In this document: piece by piece, positions 108-14,759 of the stretch
How the letters are laid out: each line of letters starts with the position of its first letter
Position numbering within the stretch: the first letter of the stretch is position 1
Source: an uncultured Bacteroidales bacterium
GTDB lineage: Bacteria; Bacteroidota; Bacteroidia; Bacteroidales; WCHB1-69
Assembly (NCBI GenBank): GCA_937901925.1
Contig: CALGTS010000016.1
Span: 1-32,000, forward strand
Direction: 5' to 3'
DNA length: 32,000 nt
Translations under genes and position numbers: made by a program
Notes under the pieces: model-generated
Databases searched by the model: none
Told to the model about the DNA's origin: nothing
The model's input: the letters and a program-made list of their open reading frames with translations, nothing else

Positions 108-923
108 ATGAGAAAAGTCACATTTGAAACTCTTAATCCTTCTTCAAAAATTTTCGAAGTGTTGAACAACAACAATTTTGCGTGGTGGGAAAGATTTAAA
201 TCGGAATCAAGTTTTTATATTGAAGTCCGCAAAGACAATCAAATTAACGTATATCATGAAGGCGGCAATGTTGTTAGATTACATTATTGCTCTAAAAGGA
301 ATGTATTACAAGCATTTACTCATTGTAAATATTTAGGGCGCGAAGAATTGAAGAATAAATACCTAAATTGTATTGATATTTTAGATGCAGAAATAGACAA
401 TATTGTATCAAGAATTAAAGGAATATATTCAGAGAAGAATGGTGTTAATAAAGAAAAATGGAGTGAAAAATATATTCAAGGTCGCCTAATTGAAAACGGA
501 CGTACAAAATATATTGATTCCGAATTTGCTTACAAAAATGAAGAAACTGATATTCGTATTGATTTGATAGAATGCGTTAATGGAGAGATTCGTTTTGTGG
601 AATTAAAAAGATTGGATGATGATAGAATGTTGAAAAAAACGGATGACAATCCTAAAGTTATTACGCAAATGAAGAACTACAAACAGTTCGCTATCAAAAA
701 TAGAGAGGATATTTTGAAATATTACAATAAGATTTATGAGATTAAACAATCATTAAAGTTGCCTTTGCCAGCACAAAAACCTGTTTCAATATGTGTAGAA
801 CCATTATTGATAATTTTTAACCGATGGGAAAAACCACATAGCAAACGAGATAATCATCGTCAGCGTATGGAGGAAAAGTTAAAAAGAGAAAAGATTGATT
901 ATATTATTATCGATGAAATTTAA
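108..923 (+). CDS. Hypothetical protein with PD-(D/E)xK nuclease-like motif
   Basis: Clean 271-aa ORF in AT-rich DNA. 'RIDLIE...RFVELKR' fits the hhhD...hhhExK nuclease pattern. The N-terminal 'LNNNNFAWW' resembles 'LNNIVWW' of the next ORF. No named family recognised. Confidence 0.75.
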   Translation: MRKVTFETLNPSSKIFEVLNNNNFAWWERFKSESSFYIEVRKDNQINVYHEGGNVVRLHYCSKRNVLQAFTHCKYLGREELKNKYLNCIDILDAEIDNIVSRIKGIYSEKNGVNKEKWSEKYIQGRLIENGRTKYIDSEFAYKNEETDIRIDLIECVNGEIRFVELKRLDDDRMLKKTDDNPKVITQMKNYKQFAIKNREDILKYYNKIYEIKQSLKLPLPAQKPVSICVEPLLIIFNRWEKPHSKRDNHRQRMEEKLKREKIDYIIIDEI

Positions 924-1009
924 GATGTTATGACACAATTTAAGTTTCTTCAAAGAGACAAAAAATTGAGTTATAGAGATTACATAATCGCTAAAGATTT
1001 TTAAGAATT

Positions 1010-2002
1010 ATGGAAAATCAAAATAATAAATATTTACAAACAGAATATAAAGCACAACAAGAAAAGAAACAGCGAAAGTTAATGAAATCCAAATCCTTTG
1101 TATTTGATAACGCAGAAGGAGAACCTTTCTATTTACAAGATGAGCAATGCTGGCGACCTTCTTCAAAGGTTATCAGTCGTCGCGAGAGTGTCAAAAATTT
1201 ATTCAAAAACATAAGAAAGGATGCTCTTTTGTATTTTGAACTAAATAATATCGTATGGTGGAAACAATACGAGGATTTATATTTCCCTAATGGAAATACT
1301 CTCTCTTCACAAATTCATTGTCTTAATCACTTGTTTGCCATACGAGCAGACCACGATGCAGTGCTTAAAATTATTCAAACAATTCTACCAGATATTGCCG
1401 AAATAGAAGTTTCGCCAATTGATGAAAAGTTTTGCATCATGGACAAATATCCATACAAAACACCTTCGTATATATCATTCGAATTCACATACAATAACAA
1501 AGAACTGCTCCGTGAGCGATGCAATCAAAGAGGTGCTAATTGCACTTCGGTAGATGCTTTTGTATATGCAGTAAACAAAGAAAAAAAACACATTCTCATT
1601 GCTATTGAATGGAAATATACAGAAGCATACAAAAAAACAAATGATAATAAAGCTGATGATGCAACTATTGAAAACCGTTACCGCTCACTTGCTGAAAATA
1701 GTTCTATTCTTGGTGGCTGGAAAGATTTGTACAATTGGGATCCTCAATATGAATTGACTCGACAAACATTACTGATGGAACAGATTATTTCTAACAAACC
1801 ATTCGATGCAGACGATTATCGACATATTGTCGTTTGTCCAAATGATAATACAGAAATGATGGAAGAAGCTAAGACTTTTAAAGATTCTTTGAAAGACAAA
1901 TCCAAATTCCTCATCATCGACCCCCAATCCCTCCTTTCCCCGCTCGAAAGCAATGCCAAATACAAAGATCTCATCACCTATCTAAAAACCCGCTACTGGT
2001 AA
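1010..2002 (+). CDS. Hypothetical protein with PD-(D/E)xK nuclease-like motif
   Basis: 330-aa ORF. 'SVDAFVYAV...ILIAIEWKYTE' fits D...ExK. The last ~30 codons lie in visibly GC-richer DNA. The stop is 4 nt before the WYL gene ATG. Confidence 0.75.
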   Translation: MENQNNKYLQTEYKAQQEKKQRKLMKSKSFVFDNAEGEPFYLQDEQCWRPSSKVISRRESVKNLFKNIRKDALLYFELNNIVWWKQYEDLYFPNGNTLSSQIHCLNHLFAIRADHDAVLKIIQTILPDIAEIEVSPIDEKFCIMDKYPYKTPSYISFEFTYNNKELLRERCNQRGANCTSVDAFVYAVNKEKKHILIAIEWKYTEAYKKTNDNKADDATIENRYRSLAENSSILGGWKDLYNWDPQYELTRQTLLMEQIISNKPFDADDYRHIVVCPNDNTEMMEEAKTFKDSLKDKSKFLIIDPQSLLSPLESNAKYKDLITYLKTRYW

Positions 2003-2006
2003 CCCT

Positions 2007-2918
2007 ATGACCCCGACCAACCTTTTCAACCGCTACCTCTGGCTTTTGGAGAAACTTTCCCCTAACCGTAGGCTCACCAAGGAGGAGATAGACCGGCTTT
2101 GGGAAATGTCTTCCCTCAACAAAAATGGCGAGAAGGTGATTCCGCGCCGCACGTTCGCACGGATGCGCGATGCCATAGATGAACTGTTCGGCATCCGCAT
2201 TGCCTGCGACCGCTCCAACAACGTCTATTACATCGCAGACAATCTGGAAGAACAGACCCAGAATGTCCGAAAGTTCCTGCTCTCCGCCTTCTCCGTGAAT
2301 CACCTGCTGCGCGAGAACCAGGACATGATGCCCCGCATCCTGATGGACAATGTGTCAACCGGTGGCAACGCTTTTCTGCAGGAGATCACAGCCGCCATGC
2401 GCGACAACCGCCGCATCGCCATTACCTACCAGAGTTTTGAAATGCGACAGGTTCGCGAGTTTGAGGTTTGCCCGTATGCCCTCCGCTACGCCAATCATCG
2501 CTGGTATCTGCTCGCCAAAACCGACTTCCACACCGCATTGCGTCTTTACGCCCTCGACCGTATGAGTGCAGTTGTGGTCACGAACAAAAACTTCAGTCTC
2601 CCCAAGGACTTTGATGCTTCATACTATTTCTCCCTTTTCTTCGGAGCGATGATTACCGATGCCAATGTAGAGACTATCCGTCTGAAAGCCAGTGATTTTC
2701 GAACGCCCTATCTCCGTTCACTACCCTTGCACCATAGCCAGAAAGAGATCCGTCCCGGTGAGTTTGAACTGCACCTTGTCCCCACCCCCGACTTTCTGCA
2801 AGCCCTGCGTTCCATCGGTCCGGACATTGAAATCACACATCCGAAATGGTTGCGGAAACAGTTCTTGGACGAGGCACGGACGCTGATAAAACGATACGGT
2901 AACAAAGAACTGCCCTAA
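2007..2918 (+). CDS. WYL-domain transcriptional regulator (paralog A), C-terminal tail apparently frameshifted
   Basis: N-terminal wHTH-like region followed by the 'ANHRWYLLAKTD...LYALDRM' WYL signature. Alignable along its length with the ORF at 12584..13552. GC-rich. A conserved tail continues out of frame (see 2890..3036). Confidence 0.8.
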   Translation: MTPTNLFNRYLWLLEKLSPNRRLTKEEIDRLWEMSSLNKNGEKVIPRRTFARMRDAIDELFGIRIACDRSNNVYYIADNLEEQTQNVRKFLLSAFSVNHLLRENQDMMPRILMDNVSTGGNAFLQEITAAMRDNRRIAITYQSFEMRQVREFEVCPYALRYANHRWYLLAKTDFHTALRLYALDRMSAVVVTNKNFSLPKDFDASYYFSLFFGAMITDANVETIRLKASDFRTPYLRSLPLHHSQKEIRPGEFELHLVPTPDFLQALRSIGPDIEITHPKWLRKQFLDEARTLIKRYGNKELP

Positions 2919-3036
2919 ACGAAGCTTGAATGTGGTACGAATTTTTCCAGAGGAAACCCATGAGTTGTTCGCCAAGACCGAGCAGTTCGCAAAACTGAGA
3001 TACGAAGGGTATAAGAAATTAAATGACGGAAAATAA
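2890..3036 (+). other. Out-of-frame conserved C-terminal coding remnant of WYL gene A
   Basis: This frame is open from 2890. Its last 23 codons (2968..3036, FAKTEQFAKLRYEGYKKLNDGK*) match 13477..13545 codon for codon, with 6 synonymous differences including aga/cgt (Arg) and tta/ctc (Leu). It contains no start codon. Confidence 0.55.
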
Positions 3037-3050
3037 AATCATCCGTGTCC

Positions 3051-3093
3051 GTAGGGGCGAATAATTGAGGGGCGAATAATTATTCGCCCCTAC
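3051..3093. repeat. REP-like element: half-site plus perfect palindrome GTAGGGGCGAATAATTATTCGCCCCTAC
   Basis: 'gtaggggcgaataattg' is followed by 'aggggcgaataattattcgcccctac'. The same palindrome recurs at 3570..3597 inside the adjacent Y1-transposase gene. Confidence 0.8.
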
Positions 3094-3157
3094 CCATCCC
3101 CAAACCGGACGTGACCGAAATTCGATCATGCCCGTTTTTTTGTGTCGGAATATTTTG

Positions 3158-3165
3158 TATGTTTG
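3158..3165 (+). promoter_or_regulatory. -7 promoter box (TAtgTTTG) for the RAYT gene
   Basis: Exact TAnnTTTG match 30 nt upstream of the ATG at 3195. It lies inside the longer GTG-started ORF (3111), which argues for the 3195 start. Confidence 0.4.
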
Positions 3166-3194
3166 CAGGGAATGAAAACAATTTTATAAACAAT

Positions 3195-3830
3195 ATGAAA
3201 ACGAAGAGATATCATCGTCGATCCATCCGTCTGAACGGATATGATTACGTCCAAAATGGGAATTATTTCCTGACCATATGTTCACGAAACAGAGAATGTC
3301 TCTTTGGGGATGTTCGCGATGGCAAAATGTATCTGTTAAATTATGGATGGCTGGTGAACGAATGCTGGCAGGAAATCCCGGCACATTTTCCGCAAATTGT
3401 TTTGCATGAATACGTTATCATGCCAAACCACGTGCATGGCATTATCGAAATCAACAACCCGCAATCCACGGGTGCAAATACGGGTATGTGTACGGATACC
3501 GTGAATGTAGGGGCGAATATCGTGGATGTAGGGGCGAATGTCGTGGATGTAGGGGCGAATGTCGTGGATGTAGGGGCGAATAATTATTCGCCCCTACGGA
3601 CCCCGCAATCCCGTCCCCATGGCACATCCCGAACGGTGGGTTCCGTGGTGCGCGGATTCAAAATCGGGGTGACCAAACAAATGGGATTTTCCCCGTGGCA
3701 ACGCAATTATTACGAACACATCATCCGAAATGATGAATCGTATCAAAACATTGTCCAATACATGGCGCAAAACCCGCTAAAATGGAAGGAGGATTATTTC
3801 TATTTTGGAATCAACGGTGCATCAATATGA
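3195..3830 (+). CDS. REP-associated tyrosine (Y1/HUH) transposase, IS200-like (RAYT)
   Basis: 'RSIRLNGYDY...YFLTICSRNRECLFG', the HUH motif 'MPNHVHGII' and the catalytic Tyr region 'WQRNYYEHIIRN' are typical of RAYT/IS200-TnpA-like proteins. REP palindromes are adjacent and internal. Confidence 0.85.
   Translation: MKTKRYHRRSIRLNGYDYVQNGNYFLTICSRNRECLFGDVRDGKMYLLNYGWLVNECWQEIPAHFPQIVLHEYVIMPNHVHGIIEINNPQSTGANTGMCTDTVNVGANIVDVGANVVDVGANVVDVGANNYSPLRTPQSRPHGTSRTVGSVVRGFKIGVTKQMGFSPWQRNYYEHIIRNDESYQNIVQYMAQNPLKWKEDYFYFGINGASI
3507..3597 (+). repeat. In-frame 21-bp tandem repeat (3 units) ending in the 28-bp REP palindrome
   Basis: Units at 3507-3527, 3528-3548 and 3549-3569 (gtaggggcgaat[a/g]tcgtggat), then gtaggggcgaataattattcgcccctac at 3570-3597. 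Together they encode VGANIVD VGANVVD VGANVVD VGANNYSPL between the HUH and Tyr motifs. Confidence 0.95.
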
Positions 3831-3831
3831 A

Positions 3832-3848
3832 TATTTTTGTTATTTTTG
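3832..3848 (+). promoter_or_regulatory. Two adjacent -7 boxes (TAttTTTG at 3832-3839 and 3841-3848)
   Basis: Exact TAnnTTTG matches. The second, 'tatttttgccg', resembles the promoter part of the repeated junction module (4179, 9229, 11811). It may drive RNA copy A. Confidence 0.3.
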
Positions 3849-3920
3849 CCGTCGAAAATATCAAATAGTATTAACGAAAAAACAACAAAAAAAAGAAAAA
3901 GACTAAAAACCAACTAAATA

Positions 3921-4106
3921 CATATTATAGATAGCGTTTGTGGCTATCCTTGAACGTCAAATTTCCACAACGTCCTCGTTGCGAGGGCAAAAACCAATCA
4001 AGGAGAGTTATAAATGCCGTAGTAATACGGCGTGGAATGACTTGTTAGATTGGTGGGGCGTGGAAACCCTGACGTTCAGGCAAGGAATAAGTTCCACGCT
4101 TTTTTT
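3921..4106 (+). ncRNA. Unclassified structured RNA, copy A (5' end uncertain), ending in an intrinsic terminator
   Basis: Highly similar to 13778..13961. Differences fall in loops or are compensatory in helices. Indels break all reading frames between copies. It ends with a GC-rich stem plus T-run. Confidence 0.7.
4058..4106 (+). terminator. Intrinsic terminator of RNA copy A
   Basis: GCGTGGAA (4058-4065) pairs with TTCCACGC (4092-4099) and is followed by T7 (4100-4106). Confidence 0.7.
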
Positions 4107-4155
4107 ATGCAATTCACGAAAAAAAACGATATGAGGCAAAAAAACATTACTAAGA

Positions 4156-4197
4156 CACTTTTTGGCAGGGTGGCGTTCTATTTTTGCCGCGTTGAAA
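4156..4197 (+). repeat. Junction module copy 1 (right hairpin arm plus -7 box TAttTTTG at 4179-4186)
   Basis: 42 nt identical to 9206-9247 ('cactttttggcagggtggcgttctatttttgccgcgttgaaa'). It precedes the ATGAAAAAA start at 4228. Confidence 0.85.
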
Positions 4198-4227
4198 CTG
4201 AAATAATAACCACTTAAAATAGGTCGT

Positions 4228-7200
4228 ATGAAAAAAGGAATGATTACATTTTTAGCGATTTTATGGGCATTCTCTCTTGCGAATGCCCAAACCGTAACGC
4301 TGACTTTCACGGGACGTGATGCCAGCAGCCAACACGTGCAACTCCATCGAGTATGTGTTACAAACCTCACAAGAGGTTGGCAAGAAACCATTTATTGGCC
4401 CGACACAACATTGTCGATGCAAAACAGTACGGGAATAAGCGAGAACGGGTTGGGAGAAGGTTTCTCTTTGGCACAAAATGTACCCAATCCCTTTTCCGGA
4501 GAAACCGAGGTGATTATGGTCACAGATGCAACTGGTGAAGTTTTTCTTACAGTGAGCGATGTTACGGGCAAGTCCGTTGCTGTTTTTTCGAGGATGTTGG
4601 AACCAGGCGGGCACCATTTTCGGATACGTTTGGCGGTTGCGCAAACCTACATCCTCACCGCCCGGCAAGGTGCAAGGAGTGCCTCCGTTAAAATGGTGAA
4701 CAAGGGTACGTCAAAGGGCAATGAAATCCTCTACGAGGGAAGTGGGAATCCCATCTCCTATACATTGAAGTCCAGCACCACGCATCCCTTCACCTTTGGC
4801 GACCAAATGGAATATGTGGGCTATGCTGTCATCAATGGCAGTGAAGAGGAGAGCCAGCGCATCACCCAGGCGCAAGGCGCTTCACAGACATTTGTGATGC
4901 AATTTCAGGGAGAGCAACACAGATTGCCGACAGTTATTACAAGTGCGGTAACGGAAATAACGGAAAACTCTGCTTTATGCGGGGGGAGTGTTACGGATGA
5001 AGGTAGCGGTGCAGTGACGGGAAGAGGTGTGTGCTGGGGCACATCTCATAATCCTACCATAAATGACAGCTTGACCGCAGAAGGTTCTGGCATTGGCTCT
5101 TTCACGAGTAATATTACGGAATTGGAATCCTCCACAACGTATTATGTCCGAGCTTACGCCACGAATAATGTGGGAACGGCGTATGGGCAAGAAATTGCTT
5201 TTACAACAGTGGATGAAATATTGCCATCAGTGACGGGAAATATCACCTATAATCAGTACACATGCGTACATATTGCAGGATCTGTTGACTATGAGGGAAG
5301 CAGCCCGGTTTTGGAAAAAGGCGTATGTTGGTCAACCTCACCTAATCCTACAATTGCCGATAACTATATGAGTTTTGGTGGTGGTGTCGGATCTTATAGT
5401 TGTTCTATAACAGATTTGAACCCTGAAACAAGATACTATTTTTCAGTGTATGCCAGAAATAATGCGGGAATAACCTGTGGACCTGTGAATGGAGGAGGCT
5501 ATGACGGATCTGTGACAACAGGTTATTATCCTACTCCTTATTTTGACAACATTAGTAATCCGACTGTTATTGATGAAAGCACCATGCAGATTTCGTTTGA
5601 TGTAACATGGTATCCAACTACTTATTGCAGAGATTCTATTGTTGAAAAAGGTTTCTGCTGGACCACTTCGAATAGTCACTACTACCAATCACCCACTCTT
5701 TCTGATAATTACATCTCATTGGGGGCTGGAGAAGGAAGTGTGACATATACCATGACAGGTCTAACGCCGAATGTTTATTATCACTTCCGTCCCTACGCTA
5801 TCACAACGGCAGGAGTGACATTTTATGGCAGCACTTTCTTCAAAAAAATAATCTTGCACACTCCGCAAGTCAGTACAGCCAGCGTGAGCGACATCACAGA
5901 TATATCGGCTGTGTGTGGCGGCAACGTAACAGGTACGGGCACAAATCAATTTGACGCTGTCGTAACGGCGCGAGGCGTATGTTGGAGCACTTCTCATAAT
6001 CCTACTATTGCAGATAGTCATACCTCTGATGGCAGTGGCACGGGCAGTTTCACAAGCAGTATTACAGGGCTTGCACCCGGCACAACGTATTATGTTCGGG
6101 CGTATGCGACAAACAGTATTGGGACAGCTTATGGAAACGAGGTGAATTTCACGACGGCTGTACCCGTCATTTTGCCTTCAGTGACAACTTCGCCCGTATT
6201 AAACATCACGGAGCATGCGGCATCTTGCAGCGGCAACGTCATTTCCGATGGGGGTACAACAGTTACGGGAAGAGGAGTATGTTGGAGCACTTCCCATAAT
6301 CCCACTATTGTAGATAACCATACTTATGGCGGCAGTGGTACGGGCAATTTTGACTGTATCATCTCAGGACTCGCATCTGGAACGACGTATTACGCACGAG
6401 CGTTTGCAATCAATAATATAGGGGTGGCGTATGGTGGTGAATTGGAATTCACTACCCTCCAGGTGCAATCATGTCCCAACATACCAACAGTTACCGACTA
6501 TGACGGTAACACATACAATACGGTACAAATTGGCAACCAATGTTGGATGAAAGAAAACTTGCGCACCACGCATTATGCAGATGGCACTGCTATCACACTT
6601 GCCCAAGGTAGTGGGAGTTCGAATACCATCCCATTTTATTACACGAACAACGGCGGCTACCACTATTATAATTGGCCGGCAGCGAAAGGATGGGGTTCTG
6701 ACGGTGTGAATTCAATATGCCCAGAGGGATGGCATGTGCCAAGTGCTGAGGAGTGGTTGCTGTTAATTCAATATGTAAGAAGCCAAAGCCAATATGCCTG
6801 TGATAATAACTATGCGTATATTGCAAAAGCATTAGCATCTACATCTTCAGTTTGGTCTAATAGTACAGATTACTGTGCAGTGGGCAACAATGAAATCCTC
6901 AACAATGGTACGGGTTTTAGTGCAATGCCTGCTGGAATTTTTGGGAATAATGGGAATAATTGGTCTTCTGTTGCAATTGCTACATTTTGGTCTGCAACAG
7001 GGGAAATAGGAACAACATCGCTTGCAAACGCCATGAAGATTTACTACAATAGCCCTACTGTAGATATTTCATCATATGATAAAAGTGTTGGTCTTGCCAT
7101 TCGCTGTCTCCGTGACGGTACTTCTTCGGCTGGATTACCCACTGTCATTACTAATTCGATGAGTGATATTTCTGAAACGACTGCCACATGTGGCGGTAAT

Positions 7201-8097
7201 ATAGTATCAGACGGTGGAACACCTGTCACCTCTCGTGGTGTATGTTGGTCAACCTCACCTAATCCTACAATAAATGACTTTCATACTAATAATGGAATAG
7301 GCATAGGGAGTTTTATTAGCAACATCACGGGACTTACTCATGGCACTACCTATTATGCACGTGCATACGCCACTAATGCTAATGGGACTTCTTACGGCGC
7401 AGAGGTGACTTTTACAACCTCCATAACATGTGGAGTACACACGGTAAGTGATTATGATGGAAACGAATATAATACAGTACAGATTGGTGACCAATGTTGG
7501 ATGAAAGAGAATATGCGAACCACGCACTTCGCTGACGGCAGGACTATTGCACAAGCAACTGTTTCCCAATATTCTTCCAGTGATCCTTATTATTACAATC
7601 CTGGCTTTGACACGGAGTACGGTTTTTTTTACAATTGGATTGCCATGACTTATGCCACATCTACCAGTGGCTGGGATCCGAGCGGTGTGCGACAAGGTGT
7701 CTGTCCGATGGGTTGGCATGTTCCAAGCGATAGTGAGTGGACAGAATTGACACAGTATGTGGGAAGCCAAAGTCAATACAGATGTGGTAACAACAACACC
7801 TATATTGCTAAAGCCTTGGCGAGTACTACTGGATGGGATGTTCACGTAACAAACACTTGTCACGTAGGCTATTTGCAAAGTGGAAACAATGCCACTGGTT
7901 TCAGTGCCTTGCCGGCAGGTAGTTACCTGCATATGGGTAGCTTTTTCAATTCATCTTATTATGCCAATTTTTGGAGTGCTACCGAAAACAGCAGTACGCA
8001 TGGAATCAGGTGGTATTTGGTATATTTTTCTCCGAATATAAACAGCGACACATGTGCTAAAGCTAATGCCTATTCCGTCCGCTGCCTCCGCGATTAA
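4228..8097 (+). CDS. Large secreted repeat protein: signal peptide, N-terminal T9SS-CTD-like domain, six ~90-aa Ig/FN3-like repeats, two FISUMP (Fibrobacter succinogenes major paralogous) domains
   Basis: Signal peptide 'FLAILWAFSLANAQ'. 'LAQNVPNPFSGETEV...LEPGGHHFRI...TYILTA...VKMV' matches the T9SS sorting-domain pattern. The repeats carry 'RGVCWSTSHNPTI...TTYYVRAYATN..GTAYG'. 'GNQCWMKENLR...GWHVPS..EW...FSA.PAG...FWSAT...RCLRD' occurs twice (about 6472-7116 and 7429-8094). Confidence 0.85.
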   Translation: MKKGMITFLAILWAFSLANAQTVTLTFTGRDASSQHVQLHRVCVTNLTRGWQETIYWPDTTLSMQNSTGISENGLGEGFSLAQNVPNPFSGETEVIMVTDATGEVFLTVSDVTGKSVAVFSRMLEPGGHHFRIRLAVAQTYILTARQGARSASVKMVNKGTSKGNEILYEGSGNPISYTLKSSTTHPFTFGDQMEYVGYAVINGSEEESQRITQAQGASQTFVMQFQGEQHRLPTVITSAVTEITENSALCGGSVTDEGSGAVTGRGVCWGTSHNPTINDSLTAEGSGIGSFTSNITELESSTTYYVRAYATNNVGTAYGQEIAFTTVDEILPSVTGNITYNQYTCVHIAGSVDYEGSSPVLEKGVCWSTSPNPTIADNYMSFGGGVGSYSCSITDLNPETRYYFSVYARNNAGITCGPVNGGGYDGSVTTGYYPTPYFDNISNPTVIDESTMQISFDVTWYPTTYCRDSIVEKGFCWTTSNSHYYQSPTLSDNYISLGAGEGSVTYTMTGLTPNVYYHFRPYAITTAGVTFYGSTFFKKIILHTPQVSTASVSDITDISAVCGGNVTGTGTNQFDAVVTARGVCWSTSHNPTIADSHTSDGSGTGSFTSSITGLAPGTTYYVRAYATNSIGTAYGNEVNFTTAVPVILPSVTTSPVLNITEHAASCSGNVISDGGTTVTGRGVCWSTSHNPTIVDNHTYGGSGTGNFDCIISGLASGTTYYARAFAINNIGVAYGGELEFTTLQVQSCPNIPTVTDYDGNTYNTVQIGNQCWMKENLRTTHYADGTAITLAQGSGSSNTIPFYYTNNGGYHYYNWPAAKGWGSDGVNSICPEGWHVPSAEEWLLLIQYVRSQSQYACDNNYAYIAKALASTSSVWSNSTDYCAVGNNEILNNGTGFSAMPAGIFGNNGNNWSSVAIATFWSATGEIGTTSLANAMKIYYNSPTVDISSYDKSVGLAIRCLRDGTSSAGLPTVITNSMSDISETTATCGGNIVSDGGTPVTSRGVCWSTSPNPTINDFHTNNGIGIGSFISNITGLTHGTTYYARAYATNANGTSYGAEVTFTTSITCGVHTVSDYDGNEYNTVQIGDQCWMKENMRTTHFADGRTIAQATVSQYSSSDPYYYNPGFDTEYGFFYNWIAMTYATSTSGWDPSGVRQGVCPMGWHVPSDSEWTELTQYVGSQSQYRCGNNNTYIAKALASTTGWDVHVTNTCHVGYLQSGNNATGFSALPAGSYLHMGSFFNSSYYANFWSATENSSTHGIRWYLVYFSPNINSDTCAKANAYSVRCLRD

Positions 8098-8127
8098 CAT
8101 AAAAATTCAATAAATATGGGAGGCAGC

Positions 8128-8154
8128 CGAAAATCCCTCAAAGAGTAGGCGAAA
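8128..8154 (+). repeat. Cassette leader repeat, copy 1
   Basis: 'cgaaaatccctcaaagagtaggcgaaa' here versus 'cgaaaatccctcaatgagcaggcaaaa' at 9746-9772. Each lies a few tens of nt upstream of a low-GC nuclease gene. Confidence 0.55.
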
Positions 8155-8172
8155 GAATAAAAATCTATTATT

Positions 8173-9168
8173 ATGACGAATAATAAATCAACCCAAAGTA
8201 ACACACCGAGTAAATTTTTTAAACTACCATACAATATGGATGGTAACAGCTGTACAACACTTTTTAAGCACGGGTATTTCAATTTCCCTATAAAAGAATA
8301 TAATGGATTGGGACGAAACAAAGAACATTGTCTTGGCAGTTATACATTATTCGTTGCAAAGGATGTAAAGGAAAAGTATGCGAAAGACGGCTTCATAAGC
8401 GAAATACTTAACATGATTGATAATGACAAGGTTCAAATAAGAATATTTACTTCTCCTTACAAAAGGGGAGGCAAGAAAGGAGAGGTCGTTCGTTGTGCTA
8501 TCGATTATATCTTTTTGCAACAAATCAAAAAACTGTTTGTCAGTACTCTGGCTTATCTATATGCAAAAAAAGATGTTCCAGAAATGGAATCCATGGAGTT
8601 TACTTTCGACTATTCGGACTTGGAAGCCAGAACAGTCTCTTTGTCTTCTTTGAATTTATATACACCATTGGACAACCCTTTTTTTGAGTATGCGAGAAAT
8701 TATGCCTCTTTCCTTTCTTTGGAAGACATCAGTTCTGGAAAACTGAAAACACAAGATGACTCTGAAAGAAACGATTTCTACAAACCCGAACTACTGTCAC
8801 CGTGGAAAACGGCGGATAACATTGACAAAGATAAATCTTATTTATTAGATATTCCAGGAATATATATGCTGTATAATTCTAACAACAACAATTTCTATAT
8901 CGGCAAATCCAAAAACCTTTTGCAACGCATCAAGAAACATTATGATGACGAAAACGATCCGTCATACGGGTTCACACATTACCGCTACAGTATAATCCAA
9001 AGCGAATATTTTGATGTTTTAGACTTGATTGAGAACGCTGCCATACATGATGTAGCATGGATTTTGAATATGCCAGAATCAAAAAGATATAAAAAAGCGC
9101 TTTCTACTTTTGCTGATATAAACAACTGCATAATGACAAATAAGATAGAACGTCAAACAAAGAAATAA
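8173..9168 (+). CDS. GIY-YIG nuclease-domain protein (C-terminal) with an uncharacterised N-terminal region
   Basis: 'IPGIYMLYNSNNNNFYIGKSKNLLQRIKKHY' gives GIY-x10-YIG plus the conserved Arg, with a downstream 'LIENAAIHD' Glu. Visibly low-GC ORF. Confidence 0.75.
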   Translation: MTNNKSTQSNTPSKFFKLPYNMDGNSCTTLFKHGYFNFPIKEYNGLGRNKEHCLGSYTLFVAKDVKEKYAKDGFISEILNMIDNDKVQIRIFTSPYKRGGKKGEVVRCAIDYIFLQQIKKLFVSTLAYLYAKKDVPEMESMEFTFDYSDLEARTVSLSSLNLYTPLDNPFFEYARNYASFLSLEDISSGKLKTQDDSERNDFYKPELLSPWKTADNIDKDKSYLLDIPGIYMLYNSNNNNFYIGKSKNLLQRIKKHYDDENDPSYGFTHYRYSIIQSEYFDVLDLIENAAIHDVAWILNMPESKRYKKALSTFADINNCIMTNKIERQTKK

Positions 9169-9247
9169 TAATCGTCAGTTTTCCACACCCCACTCGCCAC
9201 CCTGCCACTTTTTGGCAGGGTGGCGTTCTATTTTTGCCGCGTTGAAA
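9165..9247 (+). repeat. Junction module copy 2: conserved tail, perfect 12-bp GC-rich hairpin and -7 promoter box
   Basis: The tail 'ataataatcgtcagttttccacacc' (9165-9189) is identical to 11746-11770. The hairpin is GCCACCCTGCCA-ctttt-TGGCAGGGTGGC (9196-9224). TAttTTTG lies at 9229-9236. The module probably acts as a terminator followed by a promoter. Confidence 0.85.
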
Positions 9248-9284
9248 TTGAGAGAATATTTTATAACCCTTAAATTCCAAAAAA

Positions 9285-9683
9285 ATGAAAAAAAACGATC
9301 GCGCAGCATTGAGGTACCAGATACTGCTGATGCTGCAACAAAATGGACCTCTTACCGAAACGGAAATCACCCATCGGCTGGACGATATCATAGGAATGGA
9401 CGAAGAAGAACTAGACGAATGTTATGAAAATTGCCCTAACGACAAGGTGTTTTACAAATGTGTCGCAACCAACGAACAAGACCTAAAAGCGGCCGGATTA
9501 GTTGAGTTCTTCGGAAACTACGGTCTCTGCATCACAGATATCGGTGCCCGGGCACTGGTGGACAACGAGAAGACCAGACGAATTGAGTACGACTACCTTC
9601 TACAATTTCCGGAATACTGCAAATGGATAAAGAACTTCCGTGAAGGGACCAAAGGAACAAAAGAAATAATCGAAGAGTTTTAA
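9285..9683 (+). CDS. Small winged-helix protein resembling the N-terminal domain of Mrr-type restriction proteins
   Basis: 132 aa. 'RYQILLMLQQNGPLTETEI' and 'DLKAAGLVEFFGNYGLCITDIGARAL' fit the Mrr_N-like wHTH pattern as I recall it. No catalytic domain is present. Confidence 0.6.
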   Translation: MKKNDRAALRYQILLMLQQNGPLTETEITHRLDDIIGMDEEELDECYENCPNDKVFYKCVATNEQDLKAAGLVEFFGNYGLCITDIGARALVDNEKTRRIEYDYLLQFPEYCKWIKNFREGTKGTKEIIEEF

Positions 9684-9745
9684 TCATATTTTATGCACTG
9701 AAACGACAATCCAATAATGCGGATTCCGCAAACATGGACGAATAG

Positions 9746-9772
9746 CGAAAATCCCTCAATGAGCAGGCAAAA
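9746..9772 (+). repeat. Cassette leader repeat, copy 2
   Basis: See 8128-8154. A 14-nt identical core 'cgaaaatccctcaa' is followed by further matches. Confidence 0.55.
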
Positions 9773-9803
9773 AACAAGAACAAACAATAAAAAAACACTG
9801 ATT

Positions 9804-10940
9804 ATGGAACACAAATTGACAAAAACAGAAGTGAAATATGGTATTTTGGTCATTAAAGAGAAGGAAAACGGTATAGGATTGCCGTCATACTACCAACCGA
9901 TTACCATACATGATGTTGCAACAGGCAAAGAGTATAGCAAAAGAATGCATTTGTCTGTAAGAAATCGTATAGACGGCCTAACAAGCCTGTACAGAGCAAA
10001 CCTCGTTTCAGAAGGGGATGCGGTGAATCTGGAATTGGAAGGGAATGTGTTAAACGTTTCCTTTATAAAAAAGGAAGAGACCCAATTTCAGAAAAACCAA
10101 GATGAAATCGTCGAACAACGCGAGGTGTTGGAGAACCTTAAAGAAACCATTGAATCCGTCAGGGATATAATAACCAACCTGGAGTATCTTTTCTATCATA
10201 ACGAAACAAATGTGCGGATAGAAATTGTTGAACGGATTCTCAATGCTTTAAGATGGCACTTCCCCGAGCTTTCGCGGGAACAAAAAGGCAGAACAGGGAA
10301 ACGTGTCGATATTGCCCTCTATAAAAAGAACTACGACTATCTGAAATGCATGGCGCTGATTGAGGTGAAATCCATAGACAAGGATTTAGACGATGAAGAT
10401 ATTTTCCAACAGCTTCTTGGCTATTTGGATGATCCAAGATTTGATTCCGTACCGATAGGGATACTGACAAACGGGCGTATCTGGATGGCCTACGAAAGAA
10501 GCGGGGATCTGATTGGTTGTGTGGATTTTCTGTCGGACACGGATGAGGAACTCGCGAACTTTTTCGAATATTTGGAGTATGAGCGCATCGACGAGTTTGC
10601 CGATGCTAATTTTCCAGAACGGGAAAGAGACTATGATGGGAAAGACCGGCACAATATCGTGGTGGAATATGCCAAAAAGGGGAAGTTGTGTATGGACAAT
10701 TCAACTGAAACTTTCAAGGCCTTCATTATGGAGCATCTTGAAGATGTGCAGGAACTTCAAAACAACAATTATTTCCCCATTCCCATTTTGTCCGAAAAGG
10801 GAAATGAACTCCGTAATGCAAGCAAAGTAAGAGGAAAAAAACTATACATCACAGGGGATCATAGCACCTATTATAAGCTAATGCTGATCAAGCAGATTAT
10901 CAGCGATTGCGGGATAAAGGCCAAAGCATATCTTGAATAA
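9804..10940 (+). CDS. PD-(D/E)xK nuclease-motif protein with uncharacterised N- and C-terminal regions
   Basis: 'GKRVDIALYKKNYDYLKCMALIEVKSID' fits D...ExK and resembles HsdR-N/restriction-endonuclease-like cores. The ATG at 9804 is preferred because the 9717 start lies upstream of and reads through the leader repeat. Confidence 0.7.
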   Translation: MEHKLTKTEVKYGILVIKEKENGIGLPSYYQPITIHDVATGKEYSKRMHLSVRNRIDGLTSLYRANLVSEGDAVNLELEGNVLNVSFIKKEETQFQKNQDEIVEQREVLENLKETIESVRDIITNLEYLFYHNETNVRIEIVERILNALRWHFPELSREQKGRTGKRVDIALYKKNYDYLKCMALIEVKSIDKDLDDEDIFQQLLGYLDDPRFDSVPIGILTNGRIWMAYERSGDLIGCVDFLSDTDEELANFFEYLEYERIDEFADANFPERERDYDGKDRHNIVVEYAKKGKLCMDNSTETFKAFIMEHLEDVQELQNNNYFPIPILSEKGNELRNASKVRGKKLYITGDHSTYYKLMLIKQIISDCGIKAKAYLE

Positions 10941-11006
10941 AACGGCAAACATCTTCCAACAACAATAAAACAAATCAGGTTAATGTGCCTGTAAAACATC
11001 AAAACA

Positions 11007-11729
11007 ATGGAAAATCAATTTGAGCAGCATTTTTTTGAAGCAATCGGAAAGATGAACAAGGAAGCACTAAAGAATGGACTCGACACATTGGACAACACAA
11101 ACATAGGGAAAAGTCTCAAAACTTTTTCGATTATAACAGCTGAAAATCCTAAAGGAGAAAAATTGCAACGTGCCGAAAACGAAATAAGAATGTCTGAATT
11201 AAAAAAGGCACTTGAACAAGAGAGAATTTTGTTTATATCACAAAAGGGGGGTTACAAAACTGATGAAAATCCTGATGGTGCAGAAAACTCACTTATTTTG
11301 ATAAATGCGCAATCATTTGTTGCAGAATCTTTGTCTTTGAAATTTCAACAAAAGAGTTTCATTCATTGTAAATGTGAAAACAACAAAATAACAAGTTGTT
11401 ATTACGAAACAAAAGATTATAAATCATATAAACTTTTAGAAACAATAATAAATCCAATAAATAACATAGAAGAAACAGACGATTGTCATTCTATGTGCAT
11501 CTTTAATCATAATCAAATAAAATACACGATATCCTTCAAATTGTTTGAAGATATTGCTGATTTTATAGCTGATTCCATGAATATTTCACTGAACGAATAC
11601 GATGTAAGATTAAACGAAGAAAGCATAAGAATAGCTGCTTTTGGTTGTGGCTCGTCTCGTTATTATCGCAACATGACTATGTACAAAGCTATACAAGAAA
11701 ACATTAAAAGACATCTGTCAAAAGAATAA
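11007..11729 (+). CDS. Hypothetical protein (240 aa), low GC
   Basis: Clean ORF 66 nt after the nuclease gene. The 'FSIITAENPKGEKL' motif vaguely recalls the ITAxNP motif of an uncharacterised DUF family. No confident assignment. Confidence 0.65.
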   Translation: MENQFEQHFFEAIGKMNKEALKNGLDTLDNTNIGKSLKTFSIITAENPKGEKLQRAENEIRMSELKKALEQERILFISQKGGYKTDENPDGAENSLILINAQSFVAESLSLKFQQKSFIHCKCENNKITSCYYETKDYKSYKLLETIINPINNIEETDDCHSMCIFNHNQIKYTISFKLFEDIADFIADSMNISLNEYDVRLNEESIRIAAFGCGSSRYYRNMTMYKAIQENIKRHLSKE

Positions 11730-11745
11730 TGTATGTAACCTTTTC

Positions 11746-11830
11746 ATAATAATCGTCAGTTTTCCACACCTTACTCCGCCACCCAGCCGCTTTTTGGCAG
11801 GGTGGCGTCCTATTTTTGCCGCATCAAAAT
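11746..11830 (+). repeat. Junction module copy 3 (tail, imperfect hairpin, -7 box TAttTTTG at 11811-11818)
   Basis: The tail is identical to 9165-9189. The hairpin at 11778-11806 has two mismatches in the left arm. It precedes the ATGAAAAAG start at 11864. Confidence 0.85.
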
Positions 11831-11863
11831 AAAACCTTTTCATCAACAATTAAAATTCAAGAC

Positions 11864-12487
11864 ATGAAAAAGAACAATTCATCGGAAGAGATTTTCTCTT
11901 TTGCGAAAACAATAAACAAAGAGAACATCAAGAAAGGCTCTGACTTCGTCAACATTGAGGTGGGGACGTTCAGTGAAACGGAGATTGACCACATTGATTG
12001 GCCGGAAGGCGTTCAATCTATCGGTCACGACGCTTTCGCTCACTGCGGCAATTTGGAAACCGTGGTGATTCCCGACACCGTTGTGGAAGTGGGCGAACGG
12101 GCCTTCATCGAGTGCCTACTGCTGCGTTCCATCACATTCTCCAGAAACATGGTGGAGATTCCATCAGGTTGTTGTGCCGAGTGTCTCGCTTTGAAGTCGG
12201 TCGCCATTCCAGCCAATATCCGCACCATCGGCTATAGCGCCTTTGTCAAATGCCTGAGCCTGAAAAACGTGACCCTCCCGGAGGGTGTTACTACCATCGA
12301 GGATGACGCCTTCTCGTTCTGCCACCGCTTGGAAACCATCCGCCTGCCTGCTAGTCTTTCAAAAATCGGGGAAAACGTTTTCTATATGTGCGAAAATCTG
12401 AGGAATATTGTCGTACCCAAGGGCTGCAAAGAAAAGTTTTCGGAGATGCTACCGGAATGGCGGGATCAGGTTAAAGAAGTAGAATAA
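11864..12487 (+). CDS. BspA-type leucine-rich repeat protein (no signal peptide)
   Basis: Repeats of about 23 aa such as 'IGHDAFAHCGNLETVVIPDTV', 'VGERAFIECLLLRSITF', 'IGYSAFVKCLSLKNVTLPEGV' and 'IEDDAFSFCHRLETIRLP'. The ORF-track start at 11816 lies inside the promoter box, so 11864 was chosen. Confidence 0.8.
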   Translation: MKKNNSSEEIFSFAKTINKENIKKGSDFVNIEVGTFSETEIDHIDWPEGVQSIGHDAFAHCGNLETVVIPDTVVEVGERAFIECLLLRSITFSRNMVEIPSGCCAECLALKSVAIPANIRTIGYSAFVKCLSLKNVTLPEGVTTIEDDAFSFCHRLETIRLPASLSKIGENVFYMCENLRNIVVPKGCKEKFSEMLPEWRDQVKEVE

Positions 12488-12555
12488 GGATGCGTTGGGC
12501 GAGAGTTTAATATGGAATATTATAGATCTGAGGCCATTGCTGTTGGAAATAGTTG

Positions 12556-12563
12556 TATTTTTG
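12556..12563 (+). promoter_or_regulatory. -7 promoter box (TAttTTTG) for WYL gene B
   Basis: Exact TAnnTTTG match 21 nt upstream of the ATG at 12584. Confidence 0.35.
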
Positions 12564-12583
12564 CTGCATCAAAAAGTAAAAAT

Positions 12584-13552
12584 ATGGATAAGCTCAAGAA
12601 GTGCATCTGGATTGTCAACACGGTAGCGGCAGCTGGTGATGCGGGCATCACATTGACCGAACTCAACCGCAAGTGGACCGCCGACCCCGAGAAAGACCCT
12701 ATCCCATATCGCACTTTCCTCCGACTGCGGGACTACATTGCCAACGTTTTCGGCATTGACATCGATTGCGACAAGAGGTATAACGCCTACTATATCCCTT
12801 ATCGCGACGAGTTGTACGATGACAGACTGAAAATGTGGCTGCTCAACAGTTTCGCTATGCACAGTCGGCTGTCGGGCAATCTGGAACTTCGACGACGGGT
12901 GCGCTTTGAGGAAATTCCGGGTGGCAACCGATGGTTGGATCCTATCATGGAAGCTATGCAACAATTCAGCAAGATTTCATTCCTCTACCAAAAGGAGTAT
13001 GAAACAGAAAAAACTTCATACCCGAACTGTGCACCTTTGGCATTGAAACTCTTTAAGCAGCGGTGGTATCTGATAGCGGACAAGGGCGTGGGTGAAATAC
13101 GCTTTTTCGCCCTTGACCGCATAGCGGAAGTGAAATCCCTTGATGAGAAATTCCAGATACCCTCGGATTTCGATCTGGACGATCTCTTCCAGGATGCCTT
13201 TGGAATGTATGTGAATCCCGAAATCGCCACCGAACGTATTGTGGTAAAGGCAGACAGAGACCAAAGCCTCTACTTGATGAGTTTGCCGTTACACCACAGC
13301 CAGCAAATCATTGAAACAACGGATGATTACTCGATTTTCTCTTGGCGACTGAAACCTACATACGATTTCATCCAACAACTACTCACAATGAATCTACATA
13401 TTGAGGTTTTAGAGCCGTTGTCGTTGCGAACCAAGATTGCCGAATTACTGAAAAGTATGGCCAAGAAACATAACTCTTCGCCAACACCTCACAGTTCGCG
13501 AAAGCTCGTTACAAAGGCTACAAAAAACTCAATGAAGGAAAATAAAAATTGA
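12584..13552 (+). CDS. WYL-domain transcriptional regulator (paralog B), tail apparently frameshifted
   Basis: 'FKQRWYLIADKG...FFALDRI' WYL signature and 'LPLHHSQ' shared with paralog A. The last ~25 codons are out of frame relative to the conserved tail at 13477-13545. Confidence 0.8.
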   Translation: MDKLKKCIWIVNTVAAAGDAGITLTELNRKWTADPEKDPIPYRTFLRLRDYIANVFGIDIDCDKRYNAYYIPYRDELYDDRLKMWLLNSFAMHSRLSGNLELRRRVRFEEIPGGNRWLDPIMEAMQQFSKISFLYQKEYETEKTSYPNCAPLALKLFKQRWYLIADKGVGEIRFFALDRIAEVKSLDEKFQIPSDFDLDDLFQDAFGMYVNPEIATERIVVKADRDQSLYLMSLPLHHSQQIIETTDDYSIFSWRLKPTYDFIQQLLTMNLHIEVLEPLSLRTKIAELLKSMAKKHNSSPTPHSSRKLVTKATKNSMKENKN

Positions 13553-13592: not shown

Positions 13593-13624
13593 ATTTAAAA
13601 CCAAAGGTGTATGTAAAAAAATTG

Positions 13625-13632
13625 TATTTTTG
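13625..13632 (+). promoter_or_regulatory. -7 promoter box (TAttTTTG) upstream of RNA copy B
   Basis: Exact TAnnTTTG match. It lies about 145 nt upstream of the start of the conserved RNA block, so the RNA 5' end is uncertain. Confidence 0.3.
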
Positions 13633-13777
13633 CAATCTGTAACAGATTCATTGTTACATAGAAAAAACGAATGGATAGGCTTTGCCCGACAACTACGTTC
13701 CGCTTTGCCTACCATCGAAGAGATAGAAAATAATTTAAACAAAAATAATATCGATTGAGATAAGAAACTAACATATA

Positions 13778-13961
13778 CATATTATATTAGATAGCGTTTG
13801 TGGCTATCCTTGAAGTCCAATTTCCACATCGTCCTCGAAAGAGGACACAACTCATCAAGGATTAGTTATGAATGCCGTAGTATCACGGCGTGGAATAACT
13901 TGTTAGATGAGTGGGCGTGGAAACCCGGACTTCAAGCAAGGAATAAATTCCACGTTTTTTT
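13778..13961 (+). ncRNA. Unclassified structured RNA, copy B, in the leader position of an XRE gene
   Basis: Paralog of 3921-4106. The terminator is GCGTGGAA (13915-13922) paired with TTCCACG (13948-13954) plus T7 (13955-13961). The T-run abuts the ATG at 13962. Confidence 0.7.
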
Positions 13962-14177
13962 ATGACAGGAATCAACGACATACACATTGGCAGACGCATC
14001 AAAGCGAAATTAAGAGAGCAAGGGCGCACCTCCGTCTGGTTGGCCACACAGATTCCTTGTTCCCCAAATCATCTGTACAAGGTGTATGACAAGTCCTCCA
14101 TCAACACCGACCTATTGAAGCGTATCTCCCTGATTTTGGATTATAATTTCTTTGAGGATTTTATCCAAAATGGATAG
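13962..14177 (+). CDS. XRE-family helix-turn-helix protein (71 aa)
   Basis: 'IGRRIKAKLREQGRTSVWLATQIPCSPNHLYKVYDKSSINTDLLKRIS' fits the HTH_XRE pattern. Confidence 0.7.
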   Translation: MTGINDIHIGRRIKAKLREQGRTSVWLATQIPCSPNHLYKVYDKSSINTDLLKRISLILDYNFFEDFIQNG

Positions 14178-14232
14178 GCTTTACTATCAACATTAAATAG
14201 GTTTTGCAATTTGTTTTCCAAGAAATTTACTA

Positions 14233-14240
14233 TACATTTG
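14233..14240 (+). promoter_or_regulatory. -7 promoter box (TAcaTTTG) for the exported-protein operon
   Basis: Exact TAnnTTTG match 43 nt upstream of the ATG at 14283. Confidence 0.4.
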
Positions 14241-14282
14241 TGGCGTTATTTTTTTTTAAAAATTATACTTAAATAGGTTAAT

Positions 14283-14759
14283 ATGAAATTCAATAGTTTA
14301 TTCGGAAAACTCTTGATGTTCACGATTGTCATTCTACTTTTTTCAACAAATATAAAAGCGCAAGAGTGGCATTATGAGATTTCCTGCGCTGGCATAGGAG
14401 TGAAAGGCAACTTTCTGGTGGAAGTAACCAGCTATGACAAAACTGTTGACGCAGCTCTTGCACAGATGAGAAAAGATGCGGTACACGGTGTTCTTTTTAA
14501 AGGCATGGACGGCAAGTGCATGCAGAAACCTTTGGTGAGTAAGGCAGAGTTGGAGTCCGAATACGAATCTTTTTTTTCCAAATTCTTCAGTTCATCAGGA
14601 GACTATGGCAAATATTTGGAAGATGATACGAATACGAGTATGTCTGTGGTGAAGGTGGGGAAAAAGCAATACAAAGTAACCAAAGTACTTTCCGTAAAAA
14701 AGGATATGTTGCGTAAAGATTTGGAAAAGGCCGGCATACTTAAACCTTTAGGATATTAG
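14283..14759 (+). CDS. Exported hypothetical protein (paralog of the next gene)
   Basis: Signal peptide 'LLMFTIVILLFSTNIKAQ'. It shares 'C.G.G..G', 'K.AV..V.FKG', 'PL' and 'FF...GDY..Y' with 14792..15280. Confidence 0.8.
   Translation: MKFNSLFGKLLMFTIVILLFSTNIKAQEWHYEISCAGIGVKGNFLVEVTSYDKTVDAALAQMRKDAVHGVLFKGMDGKCMQKPLVSKAELESEYESFFSKFFSSSGDYGKYLEDDTNTSMSVVKVGKKQYKVTKVLSVKKDMLRKDLEKAGILKPLGY

Follow-up and report, generated by a model that had tools for sequence, protein, structure and literature searches.

The gene for a 71-aa Cro/C1 (XRE)-type helix-turn-helix protein at 13962–14177 (plus strand) of the window, the 32,000-nt stretch of DNA that was analysed, is preceded by a member of a previously undescribed, structured RNA family that is common in uncultured rumen and gut Bacteroidales. 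Judged from sequence and comparative evidence, this RNA (copy B of two in the window) probably acts in cis as a transcription attenuator or orphan riboswitch-like 5′ leader, a reading to which we assign a probability of roughly 0.55. Leader control based on a terminator is already known as a general kind of regulation; the family itself matches no described RNA family. An attenuator or riboswitch had also been proposed for this region in a first-pass annotation of the sequence. The conserved and co-oriented leader, the junction between U-run and ATG, and the alternative helices, some of which covary, uphold that proposal, whereas other parts of it needed correction, in that the RNA is not specific to XRE genes, the stem before the U-run is long-range, and the transcript probably starts further upstream.

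Copy B ends in seven T residues at 13955–13961, and the ATG of the 71-aa ORF follows directly at 13962–13964, as direct reading of the sequence confirmed, with the start codon abutting the U-run. Copy A spans 3930–4106, is about 175 nt long like copy B, and has the same tail with an ATG in the equivalent place at 4107, where the first-pass annotation had placed it. Over some 180 nt the two copies share 85–86% identity, and exactly two occurrences of the 25-mer GATAGCGTTTGTGGCTATCCTTGAA were counted where none is expected. Both copies were predicted to fold much more stably than shuffled sequences, with minimum free energies of −69.8 kcal/mol (z = −7.2) for copy B and −70.2 kcal/mol (z = −5.7) for copy A. 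Module A as a whole (3841–4109, plus strand) comprises the box TATTTTTG (3841–3848), an A-rich leader, the RNA (3930–4099), a U7 run (4100–4106), and the orphan ATG at 4107. The XRE gene is indeed missing from this module, since copy A is followed only by a 36-codon ORF and then by a TAnnTTTG promoter module (4164–4200) and a surface-protein gene at 4228. The 36-codon ORF was rejected both as a real gene and as a remnant of the 76-aa XRE subfamily: it is frame-shifted in relatives, its protein is not conserved, and no DNA similarity past the first 7–8 nt was found.

Bacteroidales MAGs and rumen-type metagenomes yielded at least 193 distinct homologs of the RNA. An internal 19-base motif, scanned against one genome per species, returned at least 119 stretches, about six of them chance matches, and a metagenome scan with a separate 5′ anchor, which did not select for the internal box i described below, returned at least 120 loci. 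Among the matches listed, nearly all sources were rumen or herbivore-gut and human-gut Bacteroidales MAGs, and the taxa included Ca. Limimorpha, Paludibacteraceae, F082, Lentimicrobiaceae, and Rikenellaceae. Some MAGs contain at least four copies. Two RNA copies were found 1.3–6 kb apart on one contig in four loci (L031, L045, L078, and L103), and in two of these (L045 and L031) each copy has an XRE gene of its own. When all loci were searched with nhmmer for copies without an exact box i, only one degenerate partial copy was recovered (L048, 4085–4192), right behind a full one. The motif had no match in the viral contigs scanned, and a phage-borne origin of the element was ruled out on this ground.

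Searches against Rfam 15 gave no model for the RNA. The whole window matched only DUF805b (8117–8151) at the gathering threshold, the region 13600–14300 gave only noise of 14–16 bits at E ≤ 10, and the leaders of seven related loci had no match to Rfam models. No description of the RNA was found in the literature. Its length is 167–194 nt and falls in all classes modulo 3, which indicates that the region is non-coding; together with the compensatory pairing and the unrelated genes that also occur downstream, this led us to reject an N-terminal coding extension of the XRE gene. Two different and strongly folded leaders, both negative with the family HMM, were seen upstream of more distant XRE homologs, one in L265 (1318–1500, z = −5.0), in which the U-run touches the ATG, and one in L268 (1312–1470, z = −6.2), in which about 33 nt separate the U-run from the annotated start codon. 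The set detected by the HMM may be only part of a much broader leader family.

The fold of the RNA was evaluated by covariation in 103 sequences, with 500 shuffles and slid-partner controls. Standard pairs occupied 98.0% of cells compared with 88.9% in the shuffles, 19 pairs were changed on both sides (a number reached by 0 of 500 shuffles), and the covariation score was 0.295 versus 0.02–0.06 for slid partners. The domain on the plus strand opens with a hairpin, P0 (GAUAGC-N7-GCUAUC, 13790–13808), which is paired in 99% of cells; its U.G/G.U pairs and GC-to-AU changes place the pairing at the RNA level and on this strand. The core fold (13809–13936) consists of P1, P2, P3, P4, P5, and P6. Covariation supports P1 (13809–13818 with 13927–13936), P2 (13821–13827 with 13917–13923), and P4 (13850–13855 with 13906–13911), which hold the bulk of the compensatory changes (both-side changes at six, three, and six pairs, respectively). 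The P3 hairpin (13831–13846) is variable and folds in 101 of the 103 sequences, and the P6 hairpin lies at about 13871–13891. Frequent G.U pairs fix the RNA strand. Unpaired loops are also very highly conserved in sequence. The conserved structured element that had been noticed directly upstream of the XRE gene is a covarying 5′ UTR domain, and it is co-oriented with the gene that it would regulate.

The 3′ end of the RNA resembles that of an intrinsic terminator, with one important departure from the simple terminator assumed in the first-pass annotation. The tail box q, AUUCCACG, together with U7 (13947–13961) is kept in nearly all of the at least 193 copies, and the tract of seven U (13955–13961) exceeds the minimum of five sought after a terminator stem. 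Nevertheless, the terminator scan flagged no local G+C-rich, short-loop hairpin before the U tract, and none is conserved; the sole local hairpin there, GGAA/UUCC, is weak and not conserved either. The stem is instead a long-range helix between box i, GCGUGGAAU (13888–13896, in the loop adjoining P6), and the complementary tail at 13947–13954. The conserved partner of the tail lies 50–65 nt upstream, and the helix comprises 5–9 bp. Two GCGUGGAA boxes are complementary to the invariant tail UUCCACGC, namely box i by P6 and box m, the P2 3′ strand (13915–13923). In the metagenome copies collected with the 5′ anchor, changes in box i were matched in the tail by paired 1-nt deletions (L158 and L226), by A-U to U.G changes (L195, L222, and L252), and by U-A to C-G changes (L194 and L212), while uncompensated single i-q mismatches occur in about six sequences. 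These matched changes identify the helix before the U-run as the long-range pairing, which is a pseudoknot relative to P1, P2, and P4. Box m and the tail were rejected as a classical terminator because a U.U mismatch is present without compensation in a third of sequences and the tail follows box i; box m itself varies in concert with the strand that it pairs with in P2, and shows no covariation with the tail. Bacteroidetes favour A upstream of the start codon (PMC7366714). A U-run is thus a poor translation context in this group, which argues that it is kept for termination, and we infer that the i-q helix plus the U-run would constitute an intrinsic terminator.

A second set of helices competes with part of the nested fold. 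The Alt helix pairs AUCCUUGA (13806–13813, plus strand) with UCAAGGAU (13854–13861), is canonical in 97% of cells, and cannot form together with P5, the base of P0, or the parts of P1 and P4 that lie at the start and the end of these helices, respectively. Two of its positions vary in a compensatory manner (GC 96, AU 43, GU 26, and AC 0 at one; CG 175, UA 12, and UG 6 at the other), although this covariation comprises few independent events and shared ancestry could explain part of it. A GGG/CCC hairpin around box m covaries too. The alternative pairings claimed earlier for the UCCUUGA and UUUCCAC segments accordingly exist, some of them with covariation. In predicted folding of the growing transcript, Alt was present in the MFE structure of 63% of members once its 3′ strand had been made, and was later displaced by P4, P2, and P1. 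Two mutually exclusive helix sets have support, P1/P2/P4 on the one hand and Alt, the GGG/CCC hairpin, and i-q on the other, but it is equally conceivable that i-q forms a pseudoknot docked onto the nested fold. The nested P0–P6 fold (−69.8 kcal/mol) was 13–14 kcal/mol more stable than folds with the terminator helix forced, and a thermodynamic switch would therefore need the pseudoknot or folding kinetics. The presence of a second covarying helix that excludes the first suggests a two-state switch, and the predicted arrangement of helices is the anatomy of a kinetic or effector-driven one.

The placement of TTTG and TAnnTTTG boxes indicates a probable transcript start some 80 nt upstream of the one given in the first-pass annotation. 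TAnnTTTG is the −7 box consensus of the Bacteroidetes primary sigma factor (PMC7366714). The presumed −7 box of module B, CCGCTTTG (13700–13707, plus strand), lies 90 nt before P0 and is a weak version of the consensus that lacks the TA; the corresponding box of copy A (TATTTTTG, 3841–3848) lies 89 nt before P0. Among the matches listed, 46 of 105 copies had an exact TAnnTTTG located 70–105 nt ahead of P0, and TTTG was present 60–110 nt upstream in 110 of 172 copies compared with 2 of 172 at 5–55 nt. In the window, an A-rich and poorly structured 5′ leader (13708–13789, plus strand) would separate the promoter from the folded domain, and the 80 nt before P0 average 53% A in 105 copies among the matches listed. 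The earlier claim that the XRE gene depends on the upstream promoter was supported, because no TAnnTTTG box occurs between the promoter of the RNA and the XRE ATG. An internal XRE promoter was rejected, given that the RNA contains no TAnnTTTG and that the TTTG in the P0 loop is wrongly spaced and absent in the GCACUUGUUGC subfamily. Homologs of the gene that lack the RNA have their own TAnnTTTG box about 20–25 nt before the ATG; where present, the RNA stands in place of the gene's own promoter.

The 71-aa protein had been called an XRE helix-turn-helix protein, an assignment that is right at the level of the fold. The protein of the window had no match above the cut-offs in Pfam and NCBIfam. 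HTH_26 is matched above its cut-off by a relative that shares 36% identity (26.2 bits versus 22), and PF13443 is found in some members of the protein family. A set of 70 close homologs was collected, a profile search extended it to more than 1,000 relatives, and the family profile matched Cro/C1 proteins in the PDB (E = 4.7e-6). The AlphaFold (AF2) model has five helices (pLDDT 77.8), and its top fold matches were ClgR, SinR, C.Esp1396I, and XRE proteins, with query-normalised TM-scores of 0.7–0.78; Foldseek gave a probability of 1.00 for these matches, but an E-value of only about 0.02. Many database entries of the XRE family are annotated with 85–126 aa and not 71 (P0002, P0007, P0012, P0015, P0017, and others). 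In the one case checked (P0015, from L017/L018), the called ORF begins inside the leader RNA. These longer entries are likely a systematic annotation error, and the RNA would explain the apparently false N-terminal extensions that gene callers give to many XRE genes.

Among the matches listed, a member of the XRE family is located immediately downstream of 47 of 110 genome copies (43%) and 36 of 79 metagenome copies (46%). The XRE subfamilies in this position are 71–127 aa long and share 31–100% identity. The junction of U-run and ATG claimed for the window is kept across several of these subfamilies, the ATG abutting the U-run in 29 of 47 and 19 of 36 XRE-linked copies and lying 12–28 nt later in nearly all others (among the matches listed). 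The expected link between homologs of the RNA and XRE genes is thus real, but it is not exclusive, as over half of the copies precede non-XRE genes, at 15–100 nt. The non-XRE clients include a signal-peptide protein family (18 copies) and Zn-ribbon/TPR proteins (10 copies) among the matches listed, as well as rare P-loop-like, TM2, TerD, kinase, and SusC-like proteins that were recognised from motifs; together, the clients do not have a coherent function that would hint at a ligand. Orientation was the same as that of the downstream gene in 86 of 96 copies and as that of the upstream gene in 56 of 94, and the distance from the U-run to the next ORF was 0–120 nt in 108 of 110 copies and 0–60 nt in 92 of 110 (all among the matches listed). 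Placement is not independent of the neighbouring genes, as it would be for a trans-acting sRNA. When the survey was made from the protein side, four of nine clusters had the RNA, two had divergent folded leaders, and three had a plain TAnnTTTG promoter. The RNA is a general 5′ leader that is not XRE-specific, with XRE genes being those that it precedes most often.

The end of the XRE gene overlaps a putative operator array, GGATAG-N5-ACTATC-N7-AATAGG (14172–14201, plus strand), the first word of which overlaps the stop codon. Arrays of the form GGATAG-N5/6-CTATY-N6/8-GGATAG recur after the 71-aa genes of many species (20 found with a strict pattern versus 0.3 expected), and the array is also present in loci that lack the RNA (L008 and L014). 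A TAnnTTTG box follows about 40–60 nt after the array in most loci. In the window, sequence reading placed the candidate promoter at 14203–14240 (plus strand; TTTG at 14203–14206 and TACATTTG at 14233–14240), ahead of a lipoprotein operon with DUF6175 and WG repeats, and elsewhere the genes after the array encode large T9SS/LRR surface proteins. The 14-mer AATGGATAGGCTTT, which covers the XRE gene end and the first operator word, is located at 14169–14182 and again at 13671–13684, upstream of the presumed promoter of copy B; the upstream occurrence resembles a relic of an earlier tandem RNA-XRE module.

Several other features of the window were recorded. Genes of defence type are abundant around the two modules (108–3830 and 8173–13552), including REase-ARP/PD-(D/E)XK, GIY-YIG, Mrr_N, and HSDR_N-like genes and those for two WYL-WCX regulators (2007–2918 and 12512–13552). 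The ORF at 3111–3830 contains internal VGANVVD repeats; its C-terminus was read from the sequence as IS200/RAYT-like, and Pfam gave no such match. The DUF805b RNA motif (RF02914, 39.9 bits) at 8117–8151 lies just upstream of the GIY-YIG gene (8173–9168), and the same motif lies on the downstream side of an XRE gene in the related locus L268 (2309–2341, 48.7 bits). A 37-nt promoter module with a TAnnTTTG box, GGCAGGGTGGCGTTCTATTTTTGCCGCGTTGAAAcTG, occurs twice, at 4164–4200 before the surface-protein gene (4228) and at 9214–9250 before the Mrr_N gene (9285), and a weaker copy may be present near 11790–11831 on the minus strand. Genes ftsQ/A/Z and pyrB/I are located at 25–30 kb, and the promoters of the window are of the TAnnTTTG type, which marks the window as Bacteroidales DNA. 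The same species from another sample (L001) has flanks 96.6% and 99.4% identical to the window. Between its copies A and B it contains a different 3.1-kb cassette (650–3777) with small ORFs, two DUF4230 genes, Mrr_N, and a NucS-like gene, compared with the 7.5-kb cassette of the window (4221–11739), which contains the surface protein, GIY-YIG, Mrr_N, HSDR_N-like, and DUF3293 genes. The strain break-point lies directly after the promoter module and not inside the RNA.

Under the attenuator reading, transcription would start at a sigma-A type promoter about 80–90 nt upstream of the fold and pass through the A-rich stretch, after which the 165-nt domain P0–P6 would be made and the 3′ tail AUUCCACG could pair with the internal loop GCGUGGAAU just before U7. 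The i-q helix and the U-run would then act as an intrinsic terminator, with the stopped transcripts forming a short RNA, and transcripts that read through would carry the XRE-type gene, with its ATG after the last U. The domain would adopt either P0/P1/P2/P4/P5 or the Alt helix with loop i free. In the terminator state, Alt, P3, and P6 would be formed and i-q would close the GGG/CCC hairpin directly ahead of the U-run, and in the other state, P0–P6, the tail would be free or docked as a pseudoknot. The balance between termination and read-through is probably governed by an effector, be it a small molecule, a protein, or the kinetics of folding. The XRE protein would then probably act on the GGATAG/CTATC array before the separate promoter of the next operon, and the outcome would be a two-step cascade onto surface or lipoprotein genes. 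The comparative evidence establishes the RNA family, its fold, the long-range helix, the linkage and orientation, and the HTH fold, whereas the transcription start, termination as such, the switch, the effector, and operator binding belong to the proposed model. A bolder and distinctly tentative form of this reading is that the RNA is a new riboswitch class sensing a small molecule, perhaps a signalling nucleotide, in which the 3′ tail docks into the aptamer core as terminator stem and gates XRE and surface-protein genes, forming an RNA-to-transcription-factor cascade for cell-surface remodelling.

The main rival is a leaky, stand-alone sRNA: the element would mainly be a multi-copy gene for a trans-acting RNA with its own promoter and terminator, and leak-through into the downstream gene would be incidental. 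We consider this unlikely overall, although much of the evidence suits it, including a promoter at fixed distance, the conserved U-run, the presence of at least four copies in some MAGs, and a very high conservation that extends to unpaired loops. Copy A and several others also precede a gene with its own promoter, as a free-standing sRNA gene might, which counts against the leader model, and both 5′-UTR-derived and intergenic sRNAs are known in Bacteroides (PMC7366714). On the other hand, the co-orientation with the next gene seen in 86 of 96 copies, the spacing of 0–60 nt in 92 of 110 (both among the matches listed), which often leaves no room for a promoter, and the fusion of the ATG to the U-run across XRE subfamilies count against this rival; moreover, no target or seed region was identified for such an sRNA.

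Control by a bound protein, antitermination, and recombination are less likely still. The leader could be a protein target, possibly for autoregulation by the XRE protein through the RNA or through the GATAG/CTATC words in the P0 DNA, with binding setting termination or blocking elongation. P0 (aGATAGC-N7-GCTATCc) does share words with the GGATAG/CTATC array after XRE genes, and the structural relatives of the 71-aa protein include restriction-modification C proteins whose PDB titles describe natural operator binding; however, G.U variants of P0 (GCUGUC and GUUGUU) break the DNA palindrome, the words are spaced by N9 in P0 versus N5–6 in the array, and over half of the RNAs among the matches listed have no adjoining XRE gene, which makes this explanation improbable. 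Very improbable is a processive antitermination element similar to EAR or put, which would modify RNA polymerase and thereby let it through terminators in the long surface-protein operons downstream. The large conserved fold with a pseudoknot is compatible with such a function, as is the fact that the RNA heads loci whose surface-protein genes are very long (1,100–2,000 aa). Against it speak three points: the RNA itself ends in the manner of a terminator, the long gene of XRE-linked loci has a separate promoter after the XRE gene, and neither EAR nor any other Rfam model matches in sequence or structure. The idea that the element is chiefly a DNA repeat, which would shuffle gene cassettes as a mobile promoter cassette or a substrate for recombination and in which the fold is secondary, has hardly any likelihood. 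It draws on the interval between copies A and B, which differs between strains with identical flanks, on the tandem modules (L031, L045, L078, and L103), and on the promoter module repeated at 4164 and 9214. Yet the compensatory pair changes across species reveal selection on RNA pairing, the element lacks terminal inverted repeats and target duplications, the viral contigs contain no copies, and the strain break-point falls after the promoter module and not in the RNA. The attenuator or riboswitch-like leader therefore remains the preferred reading.

If this reading is true, a bacterial order in which very few RNA regulators have been characterised would gain a widespread and well-defined RNA class, tied to the control of small XRE regulators, large T9SS/LRR surface proteins, and lipoprotein operons in rumen and gut bacteria. 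Nearly 200 members are aligned so far, and the RNA is a concrete orphan candidate for the screening of ligands or protein partners. Furthermore, the RNA would exemplify a terminator formed from a long-range helix, a kind that escapes standard predictors.

Comparison with known systems brings out both likenesses and differences. Like the 5′-UTR-derived and intergenic sRNAs of Bacteroides (Ryan et al. 2020, PMC7366714), the RNA described here would have a sigma-ABfr type promoter, a Rho-independent end, a length of 150–260 nt, and perhaps a 5′ end in common with an mRNA. It differs from them in being located in uncultured rumen and gut Bacteroidales and not in the B. thetaiotaomicron data, and from typical sRNAs in being far more structured and conserved and tightly fused to the next ORF. 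The 71-aa protein resembles C.Esp1396I, C.BclI, SinR, and ClgR in its five-helix fold and similar size, and its locus resembles those of C proteins in having an array of inverted words adjoining a promoter. Unlike C proteins, the protein of the window falls below the Pfam thresholds, its array is positioned after the gene and before the next promoter, its expression appears to depend on read-through, and no restriction-modification genes lie downstream. EAR, which contains a pseudoknot, and put are structured antitermination RNAs that head surface-polymer or surface-protein loci. The RNA likewise stands at the head of surface loci, but it has a U-run end of its own and no homology to either, and the long genes downstream are separately promoted. 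Among riboswitches, the c-di-GMP-I/GEMM class has numerous copies in front of a variety of surface and regulatory genes, and the ZTP and fluoride riboswitches use pseudoknots; the T-box is another terminator-based leader attenuator. The RNA differs from known riboswitches in having no Rfam match, a gene set without a hint of a ligand, a long-range stem of up to 9 bp reaching into the core, and an A-rich leader of about 80 nt before the fold. What it has in common with riboswitches and attenuators is a folded and covarying 5′ domain with conserved loops, the presence of several copies per genome ahead of differing genes, a U-run immediately upstream of the ORF that would be regulated, and, as candidates, helices that exclude one another.
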